The translations under genes and the position numbers were made by a program. Of a DNA stretch of 64,000 bases, positions 51,730 through 60,851 are shown in pieces; positions within the stretch are counted from its first letter, which is position 1; the number at the start of each line of letters is the position of its first letter. The stretch lies in contig JACPLI010000020.1 of the NCBI GenBank assembly GCA_016186635.1, positions 3,548-67,547 on the forward strand, given 5' to 3'. The notes below the pieces were generated by a model. The model had not been told where the DNA came from and did no database searches. It saw only the letters and a list, made by a program, of their open reading frames with translations. The stretch is from Candidatus Liptonbacteria bacterium (lineage in GTDB: Bacteria > Patescibacteriota > Minisyncoccia > UBA6257 > 2-01-FULL-56-20).

Positions 51730-52033
51730 TATTGAAAATCATAATGTCCGTCGGGGTCCCTTGCAGGAATGTGAGGGGTTGGGCCTCGGCAGTTCCGGGC
51801 AACTGGAGCGCGGATGATTCTTGCGAGAGTGAGAATCCGGCATCCCCCGTAATCATGGGATAACCAATGTCGTCCTGAGTTTGCCGAAGGACGGAGTTGG
51901 TGAGAAGCCCGAAGAAGCATAGGTGGAGCCCGCCTTCGCTAAAGCTTCGGCGGGCGAAGTAAGGTGGCACCGTGGGAATGAATCCCGCCCTTATTGTCTG
52001 ACGCAGTTGTCAGACCATGAGGACGGTTTTTTT
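51730..52033 (+). promoter_or_regulatory. T-box riboswitch
   Basis: Antiterminator AAGG-TGGCACC-GTGGGA/TCCCGC-CCTT (51961-51992), overlapping terminator ending in a T run, promoter TTGACG-17-TACACT. Confidence 0.8.
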
Positions 52034-52093: not shown

Positions 52094-52309
52094 ATGAAAG
52101 CAACTCACAGAACCTTCTTCTGCCCGGAATGCCGCTATTTCAGTACGCTGGCACTTCCGAAAGCCACTCGGAGTTGCCTCCGATGCGGGCATTCTCTCAT
52201 TCCTCCCTATACGGAAGAGGATTTTGGGGATACGAGCGATGTTCCCAACTGGCTTCGCATTCATACAACACGCTACTTTAGCCTGCCGCCCAAGGCGAAA
52301 CCGAAATAG
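52094..52309 (+). CDS. Small zinc-ribbon orphan protein
   Basis: CPEC and CLRCG motifs; terminator at 52325-52353. Confidence 0.6.
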   Translation: MKATHRTFFCPECRYFSTLALPKATRSCLRCGHSLIPPYTEEDFGDTSDVPNWLRIHTTRYFSLPPKAKPK

Positions 52310-52387: not shown

Positions 52388-52626
52388 TTGACACGGATGA
52401 GGAAGGGGAATATTCTCTACCGGTAGCCATGTCAAAGATTTCAGCCGTGCAAAATAATCACAAGCTTTATACGCCCTCGTTCGGCGCGTGGGATTTTTGC
52501 TTTAGTTTCAGCTTTATCTTTAGCAAGCCTCGCGAGGGGGTAACTGGAAATGTATGACTGTGGAATAGATATTGTTCCAAAGTAACCAGTGAAAACCTCC
52601 TCGCACCGCGAGGAGGTTTTGTTTTT
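52388..52626 (+). promoter_or_regulatory. Promoter plus Phe-rich leader-peptide attenuator 1 (leader 52429-52557)
   Basis: TTGACA-17-TATTCT; WDFCFSFSFIF; terminator 52592-52620 with antiterminator GCGAGGGGGT. Confidence 0.75.
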
Positions 52627-52823
52627 TGGGAGTCCCTCATCTTATCCGCTGTTTTATGAAAACGGCAGGAAAACAGCAGATAAGATGAGTGTCTCCGATG
52701 GATACCGGAACCATCTGCGGCATTCAGCTAGGTAGTAAGTAAGTGAAAAGTGTTAAGTGATAAGTTAGCAAAAGGTTATTGTATTAAAACGTCGCGATTG
52801 CGCATAGCAATTAAGAAAATCGC

Positions 52824-53513
52824 ATGAAAATAGGAGTTTTGGGAGGTACCAGTCCACTGGTAAGTATTCAGTTGCAGAGGCTGATTGCGGAGTCTACTCC
52901 TGCGAGAAAGGACGAAGACCATTTGGAGGTGGTGTGCTACACCAATCCAAAGGTTCCCGATTGCGCCGACGGGCCCGAGAGCGACCGGGACGCGACGGAG
53001 CATCATGAAGCACTCGTGACTTCCGCGCAGCTTTTGGTGCGGGCGGGCGTTTCCATGATTGCGATACCGTGCAACCGGGCGCATATGCGTATTACGGACA
53101 TTCAAGGGCGTGTTCCGGTGCCGGTCATGAATATGGTGGAGCTTGCGGTGCGCCGGGTTGTTGAGGAGCATGGCAAAGCCCACGTAGGTCTTATTGCCGC
53201 GGGACCGGTGGTTACCGGCAAGATATATGAACGTACGCTGCCCGATTCAGGAGTGCATTGGATATTGCCCGACGCGCGGGGGCAGGAAGCGGTGGCGAAA
53301 GCCGTGCAGGCGGTCAAGGCGAATGCGGACGTGGACGGCAGCGCGGTGGTGAAGGTCGCAAAACAACTCATCGAGAACGGCGCGAAAGTGCTCGTCGTGG
53401 GTTGCACGAAGCTTTCCATGCTTACGGAAGATATCGAGAAACTGGGGAAGCCGGTAATTGACCCCATGCGCGTGCTTGCGGAGCACCTTGTGGACCAGGC
53501 GAGAGTAGTGTGA
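52824..53513 (+). CDS. Asp/Glu racemase family protein
   Basis: IGVLGG..P, IPCN.AH, GCT and IDP motifs. Confidence 0.9.
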   Translation: MKIGVLGGTSPLVSIQLQRLIAESTPARKDEDHLEVVCYTNPKVPDCADGPESDRDATEHHEALVTSAQLLVRAGVSMIAIPCNRAHMRITDIQGRVPVPVMNMVELAVRRVVEEHGKAHVGLIAAGPVVTGKIYERTLPDSGVHWILPDARGQEAVAKAVQAVKANADVDGSAVVKVAKQLIENGAKVLVVGCTKLSMLTEDIEKLGKPVIDPMRVLAEHLVDQARVV

Positions 53514-53556
53514 AGTAAAAGCGGCGAGGAATCTCGGTTCCTCGCCACTTTCCGTC

Positions 53557-53702
53557 TCGGGTATTGATTTCAGGCGAGGCGCCCCGCATGAAATCAGTAT
53601 CGGAGGAAACCATGTTGTGTGGACGTGGCCGATGCTGAAGCTCTTTGACTTCTTAAAAAACGTGCGAAGTGAAAGAGTTGATTAATGCAGCAACGTTGGG
53701 AG
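53557..53702 (+). repeat. Duplicated structured element, copy 1
   Basis: Near-identical to 57674-57821. Confidence 0.9.
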
Positions 53703-53708
53703 ATACAT

Positions 53709-54380
53709 ATGCTAAAAAGTTTTTTGGAGTTTGACCCTATGAAATGGACGGCGGAGACGAAGAAAGATGTTGTGAAGTCTCCGATGGTGAAGAAGGTAGT
53801 GTCGTTTGCGCTTGGGCCGAACGGCACTAATATTGCCCAGGCGGCGGGGCGCTGGCACGAAGAAATGGGAATTTCCGCTAAGGCGGAAATCAAGCTTTGT
53901 GATTTGCCGGAATCGGCGGTGCGGGAAAATTTGGCATTGCACGAAGATGGAGCTTTGGGGGTGTTCTGGACGTGCGCCGTGTTCAAGCGCCTGAATGAGG
54001 TGTTTTTTGATAACCCTGGGACATTCCCGTTTTTTTTCCAGTACGATATGCTTTTGGATGAGATGCAGCTTGCTGCTATCTCACGGGAGTGTTCGAAAAT
54101 TGATAATCCGGCGTCCATGACGATTGCTACACATGTGTCGCCAGCTCCTTTGGTGGTAGAGCTTGTGGCCGCTCACGCTCGGGTTGTGGATGCAAGCAGT
54201 AACGCCGAAGCCGCCCGTAAGTGCGAGGCGGGGGAAGTGACGGCGTGCATAACGACCGAGACTGCAAGACTTATGCAGCATCTTGTCACACTACACCGTT
54301 TCGGCTCCCCTCTCATGGTTTTCTTTGGTGGAATCACAGAGAGTGGACTTGCCTTGCTGACTTTGGCTGACGGACGCTAG
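53709..54380 (+). CDS. Stand-alone prephenate dehydratase-fold protein, BacA-like prephenate decarboxylase candidate
   Basis: ALGPNGTN, ATH.SP, SSNAEAARK and IT.E.AR motifs; no TRF motif or ACT domain. Confidence 0.65.
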   Translation: MLKSFLEFDPMKWTAETKKDVVKSPMVKKVVSFALGPNGTNIAQAAGRWHEEMGISAKAEIKLCDLPESAVRENLALHEDGALGVFWTCAVFKRLNEVFFDNPGTFPFFFQYDMLLDEMQLAAISRECSKIDNPASMTIATHVSPAPLVVELVAAHARVVDASSNAEAARKCEAGEVTACITTETARLMQHLVTLHRFGSPLMVFFGGITESGLALLTLADGR

Positions 54381-54440
54381 GACGTCACTCCGGCACTCAA
54401 CTCTTAAGTGGATGCATCAGCATTCCACAAGCAATTTCAA

Positions 54441-54478
54441 TCCCCGTTGCGGCAACGCAGCGGGGGCCTTCTTTTTTT
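54441..54478 (+). terminator. Intrinsic terminator
   Basis: CCCCGTTGCG-GCAA-CGCAGCGGGG followed by a T run. Confidence 0.7.
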
Positions 54479-54511
54479 GGTTTCTTGAGTTATGCTTGAA
54501 AATAGAATGGC

Positions 54512-56047
54512 ATGAAGAAAGCGCAATCAAAATTTACGCAGGCAGTTATCGGCGCCAAGGGGAATATGGGCCGCTTTTTGGCGCAACACTTGGTTGCGCT
54601 CGCGCCGGTTATAGAAATAGATGCGGACAGCAGCGCTGCCGCGTGGAGAAAAGCCTGGAAAGCGGATGTGATATGGCTTTCTATTCCGCGGGAAGCAATT
54701 GATTCGACGTTTCGGGGGAAGAAACTCAACAAAAACCAGCTTGTTGTCGATATTTGCTCTGTTAAAAGCGATGTGGGGAGAATTATCGGGGAGAGCGGCG
54801 CCACTCACCTTTCCCTGCATCCGTTGCATGGTCCGAAGGTTCCTTTAATAGGACAGCGTTGGGCGGTAATACAAACCTCTTCGCATGGCGAGCAGCATCC
54901 TCTGGGGCGCGTAACGCTCGATTTTTTCAGAAAGCAAGGAGTGGCCTTTTTGCCGCCGGTCCCGCATGACCAGCACGATTTTATGATGGGAGTTACTTTG
55001 AGTATTCCGGAAGTTCTCACTGTCGTTTTAGACAGAGTTATCGGTAGTTATGCAAAACGTTCGGGGAAGCCTGTTCCTTCTCAAGAAGAACTGATGCGGT
55101 GGGCAGTGCCTGCTTCGAACGCCATTTTCGGCGCGTACGTGCATATCGTGAACAGCACGCCGGAGTGGCTGCGGTATGAGATTGTGAAGCAGGCTCCGCA
55201 TGATGTCTTGGGCGCCATTCGTGATGCTTGTCGGGGGATTGAAGAACTTTCTTTAGGCGATGTGGAAAAGGAGGTTGCGGAGCAGGCACAAAGCGTGCAT
55301 CAGATTTCTCCCGCAGAGCAGGACCGTATCCGCCGGTGGATTAACCAGTGGTTTGTGGACTCGACCAAGACATTCTTTAAAACCGCGAAAGAGAGCCGTG
55401 TGAAACCGGCATTAAACATCCAATGGATGGAGAAGAAGGAAGCAATCTTTCCGCGTTCCAAGAAATCCCTTACCGTGGGGATTCACGGAATAGACGGTTG
55501 TTTCACGCACGAGGCGTTGCTGCGCTTTCTTGAAGAAAACGGAATTTCCGAACACCGCGTGGCGCCGAAGTTCCTTGTGACCGCAGAGAATGTGCTTGAA
55601 GCGGTTACTTCCGGTAAAACGGACTTGGGGATATTTGCAATCGCGAATTCCGGTTCGGGCGCTTACGTTTCGAGCATGGCGCCGATCGCAAAACATACGT
55701 TCAAAGTGCAGGCAGTGATGGGTATGGAAATTATGCAGTGTCTTTTGGCGCACAAGTCGGTGAAAAGCGTGGATGGCATCAAGGAAGTGTTTGGTCATCC
55801 GCAGGCGGTGAGCCAGTGCAAGCGGACGCTTGAAGAAAGTTATCCGCGGCTCAAAGTTGTTGCCGGAAAAGACAGCGACGACACGGCGCTTTGCGCGAAG
55901 TGGATTGCCGAAGGGATTCTGCCGAGAACCACCGCGACCCTCGCCTCGCAGATAGCCGCGAGGCGCTACGGGCTGAATATCATTTCCTACAACATGCACC
56001 ACGACCCGTTCAATACGACGACGTTTCTTCTCGTATCAAGGAAGTAG
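54512..56047 (+). CDS. Prephenate dehydrogenase - prephenate dehydratase fusion
   Basis: N-terminal IGAKGNMG, DICSVK, HPLHGP and HD..M; C-terminal G..G.F.HEA, NS..G, HPQA..QC and N.TTF. Confidence 0.85.
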   Translation: MKKAQSKFTQAVIGAKGNMGRFLAQHLVALAPVIEIDADSSAAAWRKAWKADVIWLSIPREAIDSTFRGKKLNKNQLVVDICSVKSDVGRIIGESGATHLSLHPLHGPKVPLIGQRWAVIQTSSHGEQHPLGRVTLDFFRKQGVAFLPPVPHDQHDFMMGVTLSIPEVLTVVLDRVIGSYAKRSGKPVPSQEELMRWAVPASNAIFGAYVHIVNSTPEWLRYEIVKQAPHDVLGAIRDACRGIEELSLGDVEKEVAEQAQSVHQISPAEQDRIRRWINQWFVDSTKTFFKTAKESRVKPALNIQWMEKKEAIFPRSKKSLTVGIHGIDGCFTHEALLRFLEENGISEHRVAPKFLVTAENVLEAVTSGKTDLGIFAIANSGSGAYVSSMAPIAKHTFKVQAVMGMEIMQCLLAHKSVKSVDGIKEVFGHPQAVSQCKRTLEESYPRLKVVAGKDSDDTALCAKWIAEGILPRTTATLASQIAARRYGLNIISYNMHHDPFNTTTFLLVSRK

Positions 56048-56189
56048 TTGATTCCCATTGGCGGGTGCGGTAGGGTGGTAGGGCTTGTCTAGAAAGACGG
56101 GCTTTCCTTAACAATTTTAATGACGATGTTCGAAGCGCATGGCAGCGTCGGCGAGCGTCGTTCCACAACCAAAATGAGTGAAGGTACTT

Positions 56190-57380
56190 ATGAGAAAATC
56201 ACGATTGTCAGTCGGTGCGGATTTATTTGTCAGAATAAAGTCTGCAATTGCGGCGGCGGAAGCGTCGGGCAGGAAGTTGATTCCGCTTGCCGTCGGGCAA
56301 CCGACAGGAGCGGCATTCCTTGAAGCGAGACGAGCCGCCGCCGTGGCAGTTATGAGCGAGGCGGAAGCGATGCATCAGTATCAAGACGTATGGAGTCCCG
56401 GGGTGCCGAACTTTGCCGAGCGGTTCGTGCAGACGCATGTGAAGACGAAACTTGCGAGGCAAAGCGTGGACTTTCTGCCGATACCGGGAATTAAGTCGAT
56501 CTTGAAAACGGTCATCATCGCGTCGCGCTGTTCCAGTGAGCGACTCAAGGTCCGGACGATGACGGCTCCGGGCTACGGCGTTCCTGCCACGTGGTGCAAG
56601 GGGCACTTCCGCGATTTCATCACCCATACGGAAGTGTCGCTTAACCCGAGGAATCGCTTCTTATTTGATCCAAGCTTCGACCTTGAGAATCTAACGCACG
56701 GCTTGCTCATGCTGAATTACCCACACGCGCCATCCGGACAGATTGCGAGTCAGGAGTGGCTCTGGCGTGTGTGCAGATTTTGCGAGGCGCAGAACATTCG
56801 CATCTTCAACGATGCGGCATACACGGCGCTTGTGCACGCCCCCAAAAATCATTCAACGCTCACCGACGTTGCAGTTGAGTTTCCTAATCTGTCTTGGGCG
56901 GAAGCATTTTCCGCGTCAAAGGCACTGGGAAACACCACGGGGTGGCGTATCGGCGCGGTTGCGGGGTCACCCGATTTTGTGGACGATGTGCGGACTGTCA
57001 AATCAAGCGATGATGCCGGGTTCGTAGCGTTTGCTGCGGCGGGAGTCATTGAAGGGTTTGAGAAGTATGCGCATCTGATTGAGGCGAACCGCAAAGTCTA
57101 TGCTCGACGACTGCGACTACTCATTAAGTGTCTTCGGTCGAAAGGCATGCGGCTTGCAGTTCAACCGAAAGCAGGCTTCTTCACGCTTTGGCTCACGCCA
57201 AAGCGGGCATTCGGTCGGGACATCGCATCGGCAGAGGACTTCAACTTCCTCATGCTTCAACGCACACGCATCTTTGGGGTGCATTTCCCTCCCTATCTCC
57301 GCTATGCGGTGGTAGGGGACGTGGAAGCGGCGCTCCCCGAGATTGGCGCCGCATTCGAAGCGGCGAAAGTCGCTTATTAA
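56190..57380 (+). CDS. PLP-dependent class I/II aminotransferase
   Basis: NYP..P.G, DAAY and SASK..GWRIG motifs. Confidence 0.9.
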   Translation: MRKSRLSVGADLFVRIKSAIAAAEASGRKLIPLAVGQPTGAAFLEARRAAAVAVMSEAEAMHQYQDVWSPGVPNFAERFVQTHVKTKLARQSVDFLPIPGIKSILKTVIIASRCSSERLKVRTMTAPGYGVPATWCKGHFRDFITHTEVSLNPRNRFLFDPSFDLENLTHGLLMLNYPHAPSGQIASQEWLWRVCRFCEAQNIRIFNDAAYTALVHAPKNHSTLTDVAVEFPNLSWAEAFSASKALGNTTGWRIGAVAGSPDFVDDVRTVKSSDDAGFVAFAAAGVIEGFEKYAHLIEANRKVYARRLRLLIKCLRSKGMRLAVQPKAGFFTLWLTPKRAFGRDIASAEDFNFLMLQRTRIFGVHFPPYLRYAVVGDVEAALPEIGAAFEAAKVAY

Positions 57381-57449
57381 TCAGCTTTATCATGCAGGCG
57401 GACGGGTTTCCTCGTCCGCCTGCTTGTATTTTTGGGATCCTATCTCTAC

Positions 57450-57669
57450 TTGACAAGGTTTTTAAAGGAGAATAATCTGAATGTAATATGATGTGCAGAG
57501 TGCAAAATTTAGCGTGCATCGTCCCATTCTCCCCATCGTTCGCGGCGGCTTTTTGGTTTACATTTTATGGATTTACCACCAAGGAGGCGGGAGAAAAAGC
57601 CACACTGTAAGGAATCAGACTGAAACACAAATAGAAATTTCTCCAAGCCTCCTCCAAAAGGAGGCTTTT
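57450..57669 (+). promoter_or_regulatory. Promoter plus aromatic-rich leader-peptide attenuator 2 (leader 57488-57610)
   Basis: TTGACA-17-TAATCT; FWFTFYGF; terminator AAGCCTCCT/AGGAGGCTT with antiterminator AAGGAGGC. Confidence 0.75.
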
Positions 57670-57673
57670 CGTT

Positions 57674-57821
57674 TCGGGTATTGATTTCAGGCGAGCCGCC
57701 TCGCATGAAATCAGTATCGGAGGAAACCATGTTGTGTGGACATGGCCGATGCTGAAGCTCTTTAACTTCTTAAAAAACGTGCGAAGTGAAAGAGTTGAAA
57801 GAAATGCAGCAACGTTGGGAG
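57674..57821 (+). repeat. Duplicated structured element, copy 2
   Basis: Near-identical to 53557-53702. Confidence 0.9.
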
Positions 57822-57885
57822 CATAGTTTGTTATGTTATGTTTTTTTCTTCTGGCGGTGGAAATCCGCTTGGGAAGGAGATTGCG

Positions 57886-59265
57886 ATGAATACGCAACTC
57901 CAGGAGATGTTCGATGTGATGATGGGAAGAGGTGACAAAAGGTTGCGGGTGTATGGAGGCAAGGGTGGCAACCTTGAAAGGGGTATCGTGCTTGACTCGG
58001 GGAACGCCTTCGGTAGGTCATTGAGTGACTTGCTTGAAAGGCATGAGTACCAGGCGCGGAGGTTTCAGGTGGAACCTGCTGCGGTCATGCAAGTCTTCAC
58101 AGGCTCCATTTCAGGGGTTTCAACAGGAAGGACGCTGGATGGTTTGTTCGATCTTCCGTTGTTCTGTATGGATGTTGCGGAAAACCCAGCATCTTTGGAA
58201 CACACAACCATCACCATGGGTTTCGGAGGTTCGACATCACCAACTCCTCTCCGTTTCCCTGCATATGTCGTGCCAGCGATGAGAATGCTTTGCGGGCTTG
58301 AGGCGCTTGGATTGCCTTTGCCTGCAGTGCGGCTCATTTCAGCACAGATGAGCGCGGTTACCGTAAACGGCATGAATGCGGCGGAACTTTGGCCTGCAAC
58401 ACTTACCAACTTCGCGGCGGCGAAACTCTTCGTGGAAGAGTTTTTTCCGAAGGTTGCCCATCGGCTTCTGGTCGATTTTGATCAGCCGCTTGAGGGGGAA
58501 TACTTGGAAGCTGCGACGGCACTTGGAGAGTATGTCACAAGAGAGGGTAAGAAAGAGCGAATTCTTGATGAGGCCTTTGCAGCGATGGAACGACAGGGGC
58601 GGCAGCATGGCGGGGCAGAGAGAGCAATGTTGTACGTGGCGTTGCACGTTCTCCTTTCGCCTGATTGCACCGCTGGGAAATTCGGTTCTCCATGGGTTTC
58701 CGCATGTCACCAAAATGGCATCGTGGATCAGATTATGATTACCGCAGGGTGCGAGACCGAAGGCTACTTCAACGCCCTTCGGCGATTCCTAGCCGAGAAT
58801 GCTCGGAAGGTTCTCGGTGGAGCAGTGAGGTTTCCTCGCCGATCTTTGCAGGTAATCTTCGGGGCGCATGTTCCTCCGTACTATCCAAGGGTTGGAGAAT
58901 TGGACTTTCAGTCAAGGAGAATCGAGAGCTTGCTTTATGACTTCAAGGGGAAGCCCCGGGGAGATTCCGAATGGCGACGGGCGAGAGCGGATCATGAGCT
59001 GGCCTGGGATTATGACGTGCTTGAAGCCGCCGCAGGGGGCTGGAGGCCGTTTCTCGAGTGGGTGTGGGACACAGCAGCTCTCTTTGAGCTTGCTGATGGA
59101 TTAGGGAACAACGCGCGAGAGCGGTTTGCGGGATTGGTCTTGCGGGATGATAAGCAACGCGACCCTTTCGCCATTTTGTTGGAAGCGTATGCTGAAAAAT
59201 TGAAGGGCAAATCATTTGCTGCTCTATGTGCGCTTCAGCGGCAAAGGTTTCTGAATGGGACATAG
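57886..59265 (+). CDS. Orphan enzyme-like protein
   Basis: AAGGAG ribosome site, 459-aa ORF, family not recognised. Confidence 0.8.
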   Translation: MNTQLQEMFDVMMGRGDKRLRVYGGKGGNLERGIVLDSGNAFGRSLSDLLERHEYQARRFQVEPAAVMQVFTGSISGVSTGRTLDGLFDLPLFCMDVAENPASLEHTTITMGFGGSTSPTPLRFPAYVVPAMRMLCGLEALGLPLPAVRLISAQMSAVTVNGMNAAELWPATLTNFAAAKLFVEEFFPKVAHRLLVDFDQPLEGEYLEAATALGEYVTREGKKERILDEAFAAMERQGRQHGGAERAMLYVALHVLLSPDCTAGKFGSPWVSACHQNGIVDQIMITAGCETEGYFNALRRFLAENARKVLGGAVRFPRRSLQVIFGAHVPPYYPRVGELDFQSRRIESLLYDFKGKPRGDSEWRRARADHELAWDYDVLEAAAGGWRPFLEWVWDTAALFELADGLGNNARERFAGLVLRDDKQRDPFAILLEAYAEKLKGKSFAALCALQRQRFLNGT

Positions 59266-59396
59266 TCCGAGGGTGGACTCGCACGAGTGTTGGTAAACAA
59301 ATTTGAGGGAGACATATGACTTGTGTCTCCCTCAAACCCGTTTCACAGAAGTTGAACCGCATCTCTTAATACGATATTGTGATACGTATATGCACT

Positions 59397-60851
59397 ATGA
59401 AAGAAGTTTTAATTGAACAAAAAAAGCAAATCGCGGAAAAGGTGGACGCGGTGCTCAAGAAAATTCTCGATGGGAGACCGGCGCTCCAGGCGATTGCGGA
59501 GGCGCGCACTCTTGGGGAATACTTGGAGCCTCCGCTCCGATGGAATCCGGAAAAGGGAGCGTTTCCGCTGCGCCCGCTTCTTGAGGACTTAATATTGAAG
59601 GAAGCCGAACGCTTATACGGAATCCCAACGCGCGAGGCGTTGCGGGAAGAGTTTTCCAAAAACTGGGCGGTGGAGACAGGGGCGCATATTTATTTGCCGC
59701 GGCGGTATGACCGACTCGAGAAGAAAGGGGCGGGGCAAATCAATCCCGTGGTGTTTCAGGGGCAGGTGCTGTGGGCGGCGCTGCGGCGCGCGCTTTTGGG
59801 GAGCCGCATTAACTTCAGCATGAATACCGGCCGCATACCGCTCTGCAATGCAAATAGCGGCGCATATTTGGATTTTTCTTTTTCCACGGAGCCGCTCCGC
59901 CTCGTGAGCAACCGCTATATGAATACGCCGCAGCTCTTTATTCCCGCGCTGGACGATGAAAAACTCAAAGAGAAAACCGAACAGCTTCAGGCGCTTGCGA
60001 GTCAGGAAAAAATTACCGATGCCGAATATGCGTACGCGAAGGAAGTACTTGCTGTGTTTGTGGAGCATCGCGACGGGCGCTTCAATCACCAGGTGGCGGT
60101 GGGGCAGGCGCATATTATGAATAAAGTATTGCCGCAGGGAATGAGGCAAGTCACGATTGACCTCGAGAATATCGGCACCGCATTCATAGTGCGGCTTTTG
60201 CGGGACCCGTCGAGTACGCTTTACCGGATATTCAGCGATGAAAAGCTTCGCGCCCGTTTCTATGGCGCATTAAAGGGCATCCGCACCGCATGGGAGGAAG
60301 GGGACAGTATGTTTTACGAAGTGGACCGTTCGGGGAAGGAGCTTAAGCTGCGCGAGTACAGGGGAGACTTAATGCCCGAGGTACTTGCGGACCTGCTTGA
60401 ATCCGAGCGTATTCTCCACAAAGGACTCCTTGGTTTTTATATATTCATCATTGAAGGCGGGTTGTGCCCTATCGGCGGTATGTTCCAGTCGCAATATTGC
60501 ATCGAGCTCCGTGACCGTATGATTCCCATACTTGAGGCGATTGGCGAAGAAGCTCGTGCCGCGCATCTTCAAGAGATGCCCACTGCGGTTGCGGCGACGT
60601 CCCCCTGCTGGGGGCTTGTGCGGAGGGGCGCGGGAGTGGAGCTCTTGATTGCCATGGATTGCATGGCGGTGCCTTTATCCGAAGCCGATTTCGCTAAAAT
60701 TCCCGCCCTCTCCGGAAGGGATTCATTGCGCCTTGCCGCGCCGTCGCTTGCCCAACTCATGCTCCACGAGGAAGCCGGAGTTACTTACGAGGAATTGCGG
60801 GAACTCTTGGGGGAGCATATTGTTACTCGCGGGATGAGTACTGCAACATAA
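59397..60851 (+). CDS. Orphan enzyme-like protein
   Basis: Long ORF coupled by TAATG to the next gene; ETGAH and GG.FQ..Y motifs. Confidence 0.8.
   Translation: MKEVLIEQKKQIAEKVDAVLKKILDGRPALQAIAEARTLGEYLEPPLRWNPEKGAFPLRPLLEDLILKEAERLYGIPTREALREEFSKNWAVETGAHIYLPRRYDRLEKKGAGQINPVVFQGQVLWAALRRALLGSRINFSMNTGRIPLCNANSGAYLDFSFSTEPLRLVSNRYMNTPQLFIPALDDEKLKEKTEQLQALASQEKITDAEYAYAKEVLAVFVEHRDGRFNHQVAVGQAHIMNKVLPQGMRQVTIDLENIGTAFIVRLLRDPSSTLYRIFSDEKLRARFYGALKGIRTAWEEGDSMFYEVDRSGKELKLREYRGDLMPEVLADLLESERILHKGLLGFYIFIIEGGLCPIGGMFQSQYCIELRDRMIPILEAIGEEARAAHLQEMPTAVAATSPCWGLVRRGAGVELLIAMDCMAVPLSEADFAKIPALSGRDSLRLAAPSLAQLMLHEEAGVTYEELRELLGEHIVTRGMSTAT

Follow-up and report, generated by a model that had tools for sequence, protein, structure and literature searches.

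Why do two nearly identical, strongly folded stretches stand ahead of two different genes in a 64,000-nucleotide (nt) portion of a Candidatus Liptonbacteria genome (the window), and what might RNA copied from them do? An earlier examination, made from the letters of the window (the sequence-only reading), had described a duplicated element at 53557-53702 and 57674-57821 and had proposed that it was either a new cis-regulatory RNA or the gene for a peptide of 8 amino acids (aa). The duplication and its coordinates were borne out; the copies are 93.6% identical over 157 nt and are spaced 4117 nt apart. Our comparisons indicate that the element is likely a conserved, structured stretch of mRNA rather than a peptide gene. 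Judged by its sequence, it is a new RNA motif of narrow distribution, belonging to none of the known families tested, in which two mutually exclusive folds look conserved. We tentatively favor, at somewhat less than even chances, a mechanism in which RNase III would cut the first hairpin and a refolded helix would protect the message behind it. The parts of the element are as follows.

53557..53702, + strand: element copy A, made up of hairpins P1 and P2, strand X, hairpin P3 and a tail
53557..53604, + strand: P1, a predicted irregular 20-bp hairpin and candidate RNase III substrate; 2 compensatory pairs of 16 counted
53594..53638, + strand: the predicted alternative (ALT) helix, in which the P1 3' strand (53594-53603) pairs with strand X (53629-53638), enclosing P2
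53610..53628, + strand: P2, a predicted hairpin of 7 bp that contains the ATG; missing from the homologue in congener G002
53612..53638, + strand (57729-57755 in copy B): an 8-codon micro-open reading frame (micro-ORF), judged incidental
53640..53678, + strand: P3, a predicted hairpin with a purine-purine mismatch and an A-rich loop; its 11 pairs are formed in every cell (100%) of the 8 sequences, and one is compensatory
53688..53699, + strand: the tail; in the minimum-energy fold its partner is strand X (P4), a pairing with weak support
57674..57821, + strand: element copy B

The + strands of the two copies are predicted to fold with energies of -53.6 and -53.4 kcal/mol (z -4.4), values that none of 200 shuffled sequences equaled, and the + strand outfolded the - strand in all 4 copies tested. 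Blastn and nhmmer found these 2 copies and no third in the 921-kb genome. The Rfam scan for which the sequence-only reading had asked was run, and no family of Rfam 15 reached its gathering threshold inside the element, either in the window or in loci L035 and L027. A recent, neutral duplication lacking homologues is excluded, since homologues exist in other genomes. Eight distinct copies were found in 5 related loci. The element is present in 3 of the 5 genomes of the genus, to which it is confined among classified genomes: G004 carries both copies, and the copy in G002, which is 60% identical and was found by covariance model, sits behind an orthologous racemase and ahead of an unrelated 609-aa gene. 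G001 has the racemase and lacks the element, and in G003 the racemase is cut off by a contig edge. Metagenome contigs contributed 2 copies in L030 (L029 repeats one of these) and one in L027, located between the counterpart of leader 2 (described below) and a PDT-like gene; a further copy is read through by the N-terminus of P0006.

Wider searches, of limited sensitivity, detected no homologue outside the genus. Strong blastn matches occurred in 2 of 151 genomes, and covariance model R1 matched in 3 of 150. With model R2, for which 20-24 candidates were scored per genome, matches were obtained in 3 of 125 genomes of the family and in 1 of 150 for each of order, class and phylum, the window's own genome included. 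A pattern search matched 2 of 301 genomes. The element was not found in phages and plasmids, in metagenome and viral contigs searched with exact patterns (0 matches; the top score of 21 loose viral matches was 11.8 bits), or in 11 other loci, and contigs from sequencing runs held no element alleles beyond those already known. Among the sequencing runs listed as containing the element, none was of RNA. Two side observations concern these loci. In G001 (L051, 2370-2640), the place of the element, ahead of other genes, is taken by a structured leader of another kind with a promoter-like site of its own; and in L027 (2926-2976), a 51-nt insert upstream of the element is complementary to its 3' half and is predicted to close the element into a long stem.

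The sequence-only reading had also called for covariation to be compared with codon conservation among homologues, and this comparison showed that the folds are kept across species and the peptide is not. Over the 8 sequences, 99.5% of cells in P1 and P3 are paired, a proportion that none of 500 shuffles attained in a control that ignores the relatedness of the sequences. P1 is 20 bp long in 7 copies and 18 bp in G002, despite a different loop there. All three both-side changes in P1 and P3 were contributed by G002, and the one compensatory pair in P2 by L027. Among the 7 close copies, 10 of 12 changes in paired columns preserve pairing (p 0.006), many of them as G-U pairs. The loops and unpaired purines are conserved, and GGAG is kept twice per element, despite the absence of an anti-Shine-Dalgarno (anti-SD) sequence described below, with one exception, in which the longer GGAGG reads GGAGA. 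The earlier proposal of a new cis-acting structured RNA is thus upheld as to structure, by homologues outside this genome, by an identity of 90-97% between lineages (as compared with 0.32-0.83 at four-fold sites of neighboring genes), by covariation in P1 and P3 and by the pair-keeping changes. Shuffling gave no significant support to P4 as a selected helix (p 0.44, 0.38 and 0.07), and this reading was dropped, as was the idea that the element arose when a single hairpin was duplicated in tandem (p 0.07-0.13). A role as a CsrA target was also rejected, CsrA being encoded in none of the 5 genomes.

The covariation in P3 bears as well on whether this hairpin might be a boxA-type site, at which Nus factors would promote read-through of the terminator-like hairpins inside the unit. 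The 5' strand of P3 resembles the boxA consensus, reported as GYTCTTTAANA (10.1101/091223), and NusB is present in all 5 genomes of the genus. Yet no copy of 8 matches the full consensus, the motif is paired within a covarying helix and is missing from the congeners' rRNA leaders examined, a looser form of it occurs 13 times in the genome, and Rho was found in none of the 5 genomes, and we consider such a site very improbable. Origin of the element from an rRNA leader was rejected, as no motif is shared with those leaders.

The sequence GGAGG-ATG-MLCG(R/H)GRC-TGA, on which the peptide proposal was founded, is present as it had been written. A translated upstream ORF, or an 8-aa peptide serving as a substrate, would accord with the position of a start codon (ATG or GTG) 5-6 nt after GGAG in all 8 copies and with retention of both Cys codons in the 7 close copies. 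However, change of TGA to TGG removes the stop from 3 of 8 copies; the peptide would have 8 aa in four copies but 14 aa in three, and the G002 copy would give an unrelated one of 11 aa (MPVWERRLFDV, without Cys); most of the changes are non-synonymous; and the ATG/GTG difference would also be compatible with a G-U pair in P2. Nor can GGAGG act here as a Shine-Dalgarno (SD) sequence, as had been supposed. CCUCC is absent from the 16S 3' ends of all 4 congeners (G001-G004; the organism's own 16S lies outside the assembly), and GGAG is near 14 of 461 starts as against 18 in a control window, which is no SD enrichment, although starts were called crudely for this count as the first ATG after a stop. 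A part of the Parcubacteria is reported to have lost the anti-SD (PMC9297842). We reject the peptide reading with high confidence, and a translated upstream ORF of any kind seems hardly credible. An N-terminal coding extension was eliminated, as the frame to the next gene varies among copies, and SD sequestration was ruled out on the same two grounds as the SD itself. Because ribosomes without an anti-SD make the logic of a hidden SD inapplicable, any real switch would have to act through RNA processing, stability or access to the start site. As an aside, the congeners' 16S and 23S genes lie on different contigs (L084-L087), and 16S is immediately followed by a protein gene.

Three stems had been described in the element, and all three exist; the first and second, however, are mutually exclusive rather than simultaneous, because the 10-bp pairing that extends ATCGG/CCGAT uses the 3' strand of the first. 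This extended second stem is the ALT helix, and it excludes the base of P1. Its two strands differ in concert when G002 is compared with the window clade, and duplexes mixed from the two (chimeras) would lose about half of the pairing energy (-7.0 and -8.7 kcal/mol, as compared with -15.5 and -14.6 for the native duplexes). When linkers were shuffled, ALT pairing of this strength was obtained with p values of 0/5000, 0.0004 and 0.008. The G002 homologue retains P1 and P3, through compensatory changes, and ALT as well, and it is the persistence of ALT beside P1 and P3 in so divergent a copy that makes both folds look conserved.

How might the element pass from one fold to the other? In computed folds, full P1 was dominant at all six transcript lengths in 8 of 8 copies, and co-transcriptional formation of ALT was rejected on this ground. 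A domino effect driven by ribosomes at the racemase stop was also rejected, since a modelled block 9-18 nt past that stop yielded at most 0.1 ALT pairs in all 4 A-type copies. In contrast, computed trimming of 10 nt from the 5' end gave 8-10 ALT pairs in all 8 copies. ALT requires that the 5' strand of P1 be removed, which in the computation the ribosome fails to do and which cleavage would accomplish; hence the cut-and-refold mechanism that we tentatively favor. RNA copied from the element, which we presume to be transcribed, would be cleaved within the roughly 20-bp P1, presumably by RNase III; the cut would separate the downstream mRNA from the leader or racemase; the freed 3' strand of P1 would pair with strand X to give the 10-bp ALT helix at the new 5' end; and this helix may cap that end and shield the downstream genes, possibly by stabilizing them against RNase J. 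RNase III and RNase Y passed the cut-off in all 5 genomes of the genus and RNase J in 4 of 5, and P1 has the helix length, about two turns, of an RNase III substrate (20 bp in seven copies, 18 bp in G002). A further point in favor is that another covarying hairpin, of ~22 bp and unrelated to P1, lies behind the other attenuator. The sequence determinants of RNase III are reported to vary by species (PMC3074117).

Several observations weigh against this mechanism, or against the two conserved folds on which it depends. All of the ALT covariation comes from the one divergent sequence, G002, and in copy gB one change strengthens P1 but weakens ALT. The shuffle control for P1 and P3 took no account of relatedness. 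Two of 5 control hairpins also have a latent partner at p<0.05, one of them at p 0.005, the value obtained for P1 of G002 in the same test, and genome-wide 82 of 927 long hairpins have a latent partner reaching -15 kcal/mol. P1 shares no motif with the rRNA flanks of G001, G002 and G004, and its cleavage site is not predictable. Computed accessibility around the start codon is nearly equal in the two folds (0.52 as compared with 0.56 in copy A), and the strong conservation of the loops and of both GGAG motifs exceeds the needs of a nuclease site. Since start accessibility is barely changed, translational activation is unsupported, and mRNA stability would be the likelier output of the element than translation, as judged from these models.

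The control hairpins, together with the dominance of P1, would also accord with P1, P2 and P3 being static hairpins that stabilize or segment a polycistronic mRNA, ALT being incidental. We consider this unlikely. Strand X of G002 changed in step with the 3' strand of P1 and not with the tail; 10-bp complementarity at matching GC content is a 1-3% event; and among hairpins with a basal GC of 5-7/12, just 5 of 341 have a partner as strong, copy A among them.

The surroundings of the element raise the further question of what signal it might serve. The neighboring features in the window are the following.

52388..52620, + strand: leader 1, with a promoter-like site, a Phe-rich 42-aa ORF (52429-52557) and a terminator (52592-52620)
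52629..52696, + strand: a hairpin of ~22 bp directly behind terminator 1, unrelated to the element, in a position parallel to that of P1; over 5 loci, 5 of its 22 pairs show compensatory change
52824..53513, + strand: amino acid racemase (PF01177, TIGR00035)
53518..53551, + strand: a hairpin with a weak U tail, between the racemase gene and copy A
53709..54380, + strand: PDT-like protein, with no Pfam match of its own; PF00800 on 8 of 89 listed homologues
54441..54466, + strand: a conserved terminator-like hairpin behind the PDT-like gene
54512..56047, + strand: prephenate dehydrogenase-like/dehydratase fusion
56178..57380, + strand: class I/II aminotransferase
57450..57675, + strand: leader 2, with a promoter-like site (by eye), a 40-aa ORF (57488-57610) containing FWFTFYGF, and a terminator (57645-57667)
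57838..59265, + strand: u459, a protein of 459-475 aa (start 57838 or 57886) without assigned function

The leader ORFs are Phe-rich and in frame in 9 of 9 aligned loci, and their start codons lie about 10 nt behind the -10 box. Given these ORFs, the terminators and what is known of pheL-type systems, leaders 1 and 2 are, by analogy, likely leader-peptide attenuators of the pheL type. The sequence-only reading had placed both copies directly after a terminator. This holds for copy B (57645-57667, 6 T in 8) but not for copy A, which is preceded by leader 1, the racemase gene and then the hairpin with the weak U tail (4 T in 8), which was not called as a terminator; a real terminator precedes B-type copies only and belongs to the Phe-rich leader attenuator. 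All 8 copies lie inside amino acid metabolism units headed by a Phe-rich leader.

This last observation, with the conserved loops and unpaired purines and the cost of just 3.4-7.6 kcal/mol for enforcing ALT, would fit a switch in which a bound ligand or protein favors ALT without cleavage and alters expression of the next gene, in tandem with the Phe attenuator. We regard such a switch as possible, if doubtful. The element has no evident expression platform, neither window copy has a called terminator behind it, there is no anti-SD, and start accessibility is little altered; in addition, the downstream genes differ from one another (PDT-like, u459 and the 609-aa protein), and the G002 copy lies ~150 nt ahead of the next long ORF. 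Rather unlikely, in our estimate, is the fuller proposal of a new two-state switch that a metabolite or protein would flip from P1 to ALT as a second input atop the Phe attenuator, in bacteria with ribosomes that lack an anti-SD, the conserved element serving also as a constant regulatory socket for enzyme genes that species would exchange behind it.

The idea of exchange arises from the divergence of the genes concerned. Between congeners, divergence is greatest in the genes that immediately follow the copies: u459 has 50% aa identity, and the PDT-like gene has an identity at four-fold sites of 0.32-0.45 in 5 of 6 pairs, the value between the window and G004 being 0.32 as compared with 0.80-0.83 for the flanks. 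(From the four-fold comparison, three rows of the aminotransferase involving L026 were removed for being out of frame.) This excess divergence suggests, at the level of sequence, that the genes behind the copies (53709-54380 and 57838-59265) have been exchanged as alleles. In contrast, the 7 close copies of the element are 90-99% identical, against 0.32-0.83 at four-fold sites of the neighboring genes. Paralogous copies are as similar as orthologous ones (98.6% for A and B of L030), which points to homogenization of the copies with one another. Possibly, then, the element acts as DNA, as a recombination anchor or site that is conserved by homogenization and enables the exchange of downstream genes, and the gene order of the window could have arisen if a unit of 4117 bp had integrated at the element (cf. 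L027). We find this improbable. Core motifs of attC sites occur in none of 4 copies tested, the single tyrosine recombinase of the genome is on a different contig, and no excision joint between the copies was seen in 4 sequencing runs, though contigs break at repeats. Also, the many G-U pairs among the pair-keeping changes fit RNA, and homogenization accounts for the similarity of the seven close copies but not for the covariation in G002.

Other features of these loci may be recorded here. The region 52629-52730 of the window holds the ~22-bp covarying hairpin and a short conserved motif in 5 of 5 aligned loci. Another PDT-like gene, in L032 (490-660; also in L045 and G433), has ahead of it a multi-stem region unrelated to the element, as well as a Phe-rich leader, a terminator and a 16-bp hairpin. 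The window's PDT-like protein may resemble BacA. For u459, a structural lead to a class I tRNA-synthetase-like fold is weak (TM 0.33-0.50) and under the bar for naming. The region also encodes a second unknown protein, an enolase-family enzyme and an M20 peptidase; at 59379-60851 lies a protein of 490 aa whose family has no name (Atlas feature score 0.95; without a Pfam match), to which the G004 match ends after ~47 codons. The 609-aa protein of G002 (L044, 9343-11172) has no Pfam match and has 217 homologues, mostly covering ~70%. Upstream, at 51741-51995 (+ strand), is a leader resembling a T-box (RF00230 at 25.4 bits and E 0.015, well short of the gathering score of 93) that is 90% identical in G004, where it is followed by a 292-aa unknown gene absent from the window; and at 52094-52309 (+ strand), a 71-aa zinc-ribbon-like ORF is kept in G004.

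Post-transcriptional control in the Patescibacteria has been little described. Searches of the literature on attenuation, riboswitches, structured RNA and RNase III in this group, or Candidate Phyla Radiation, brought up no description of such an element, subscription papers and supplements being outside that search. The narrow range of the element limits its general importance, and, as the RNA is short, both folds are testable in vitro without culturing the organism.

Among known systems, integron attC sites carry the core motifs RYYYAAC and GTTRRRY. The element resembles them in being a folded sequence that recurs immediately ahead of variable genes but differs in that it lacks the core motifs, occurs in two copies only, has several hairpins and has no integrase nearby. 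The 5' strand of P3 is 1-3 letters off the boxA consensus, and the motif is imperfect, base-paired and not common to the rRNA leaders of the lineage that were examined. With the riboswitch classes of Rfam 15, the element shares a multi-stem fold, two exclusive predicted conformations and a position before metabolic genes, and it differs from them in matching no Rfam family, in lacking a platform based on a terminator or an SD and in its detection in a single genus. The likeness to pheL-type attenuators (RF01859) belongs to the upstream leaders, with their Phe-rich ORFs and terminators, and not to the element, which is a separate module downstream of the attenuator terminator; the RF01859 match spans the terminator only, at 21.5 bits as against a gathering score of 55. 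Lastly, in the 5' untranslated region of Staphylococcus aureus cspA, RNase III is reported to cut a long hairpin, after which a shorter 5' helix stabilizes the mRNA (PMC3386247). P1, at ~20 bp, is shorter than the cspA hairpin of 32, and no sequence relation is expected; the new helix of the element would arise by strand exchange with the separate strand X; and the element is found behind an attenuator or between two genes, with cleavage of P1 as a presumed step. Nonetheless, the two may work alike, in that cleavage of a long 5' hairpin would in each case leave a stable helix at the 5' end of the message.

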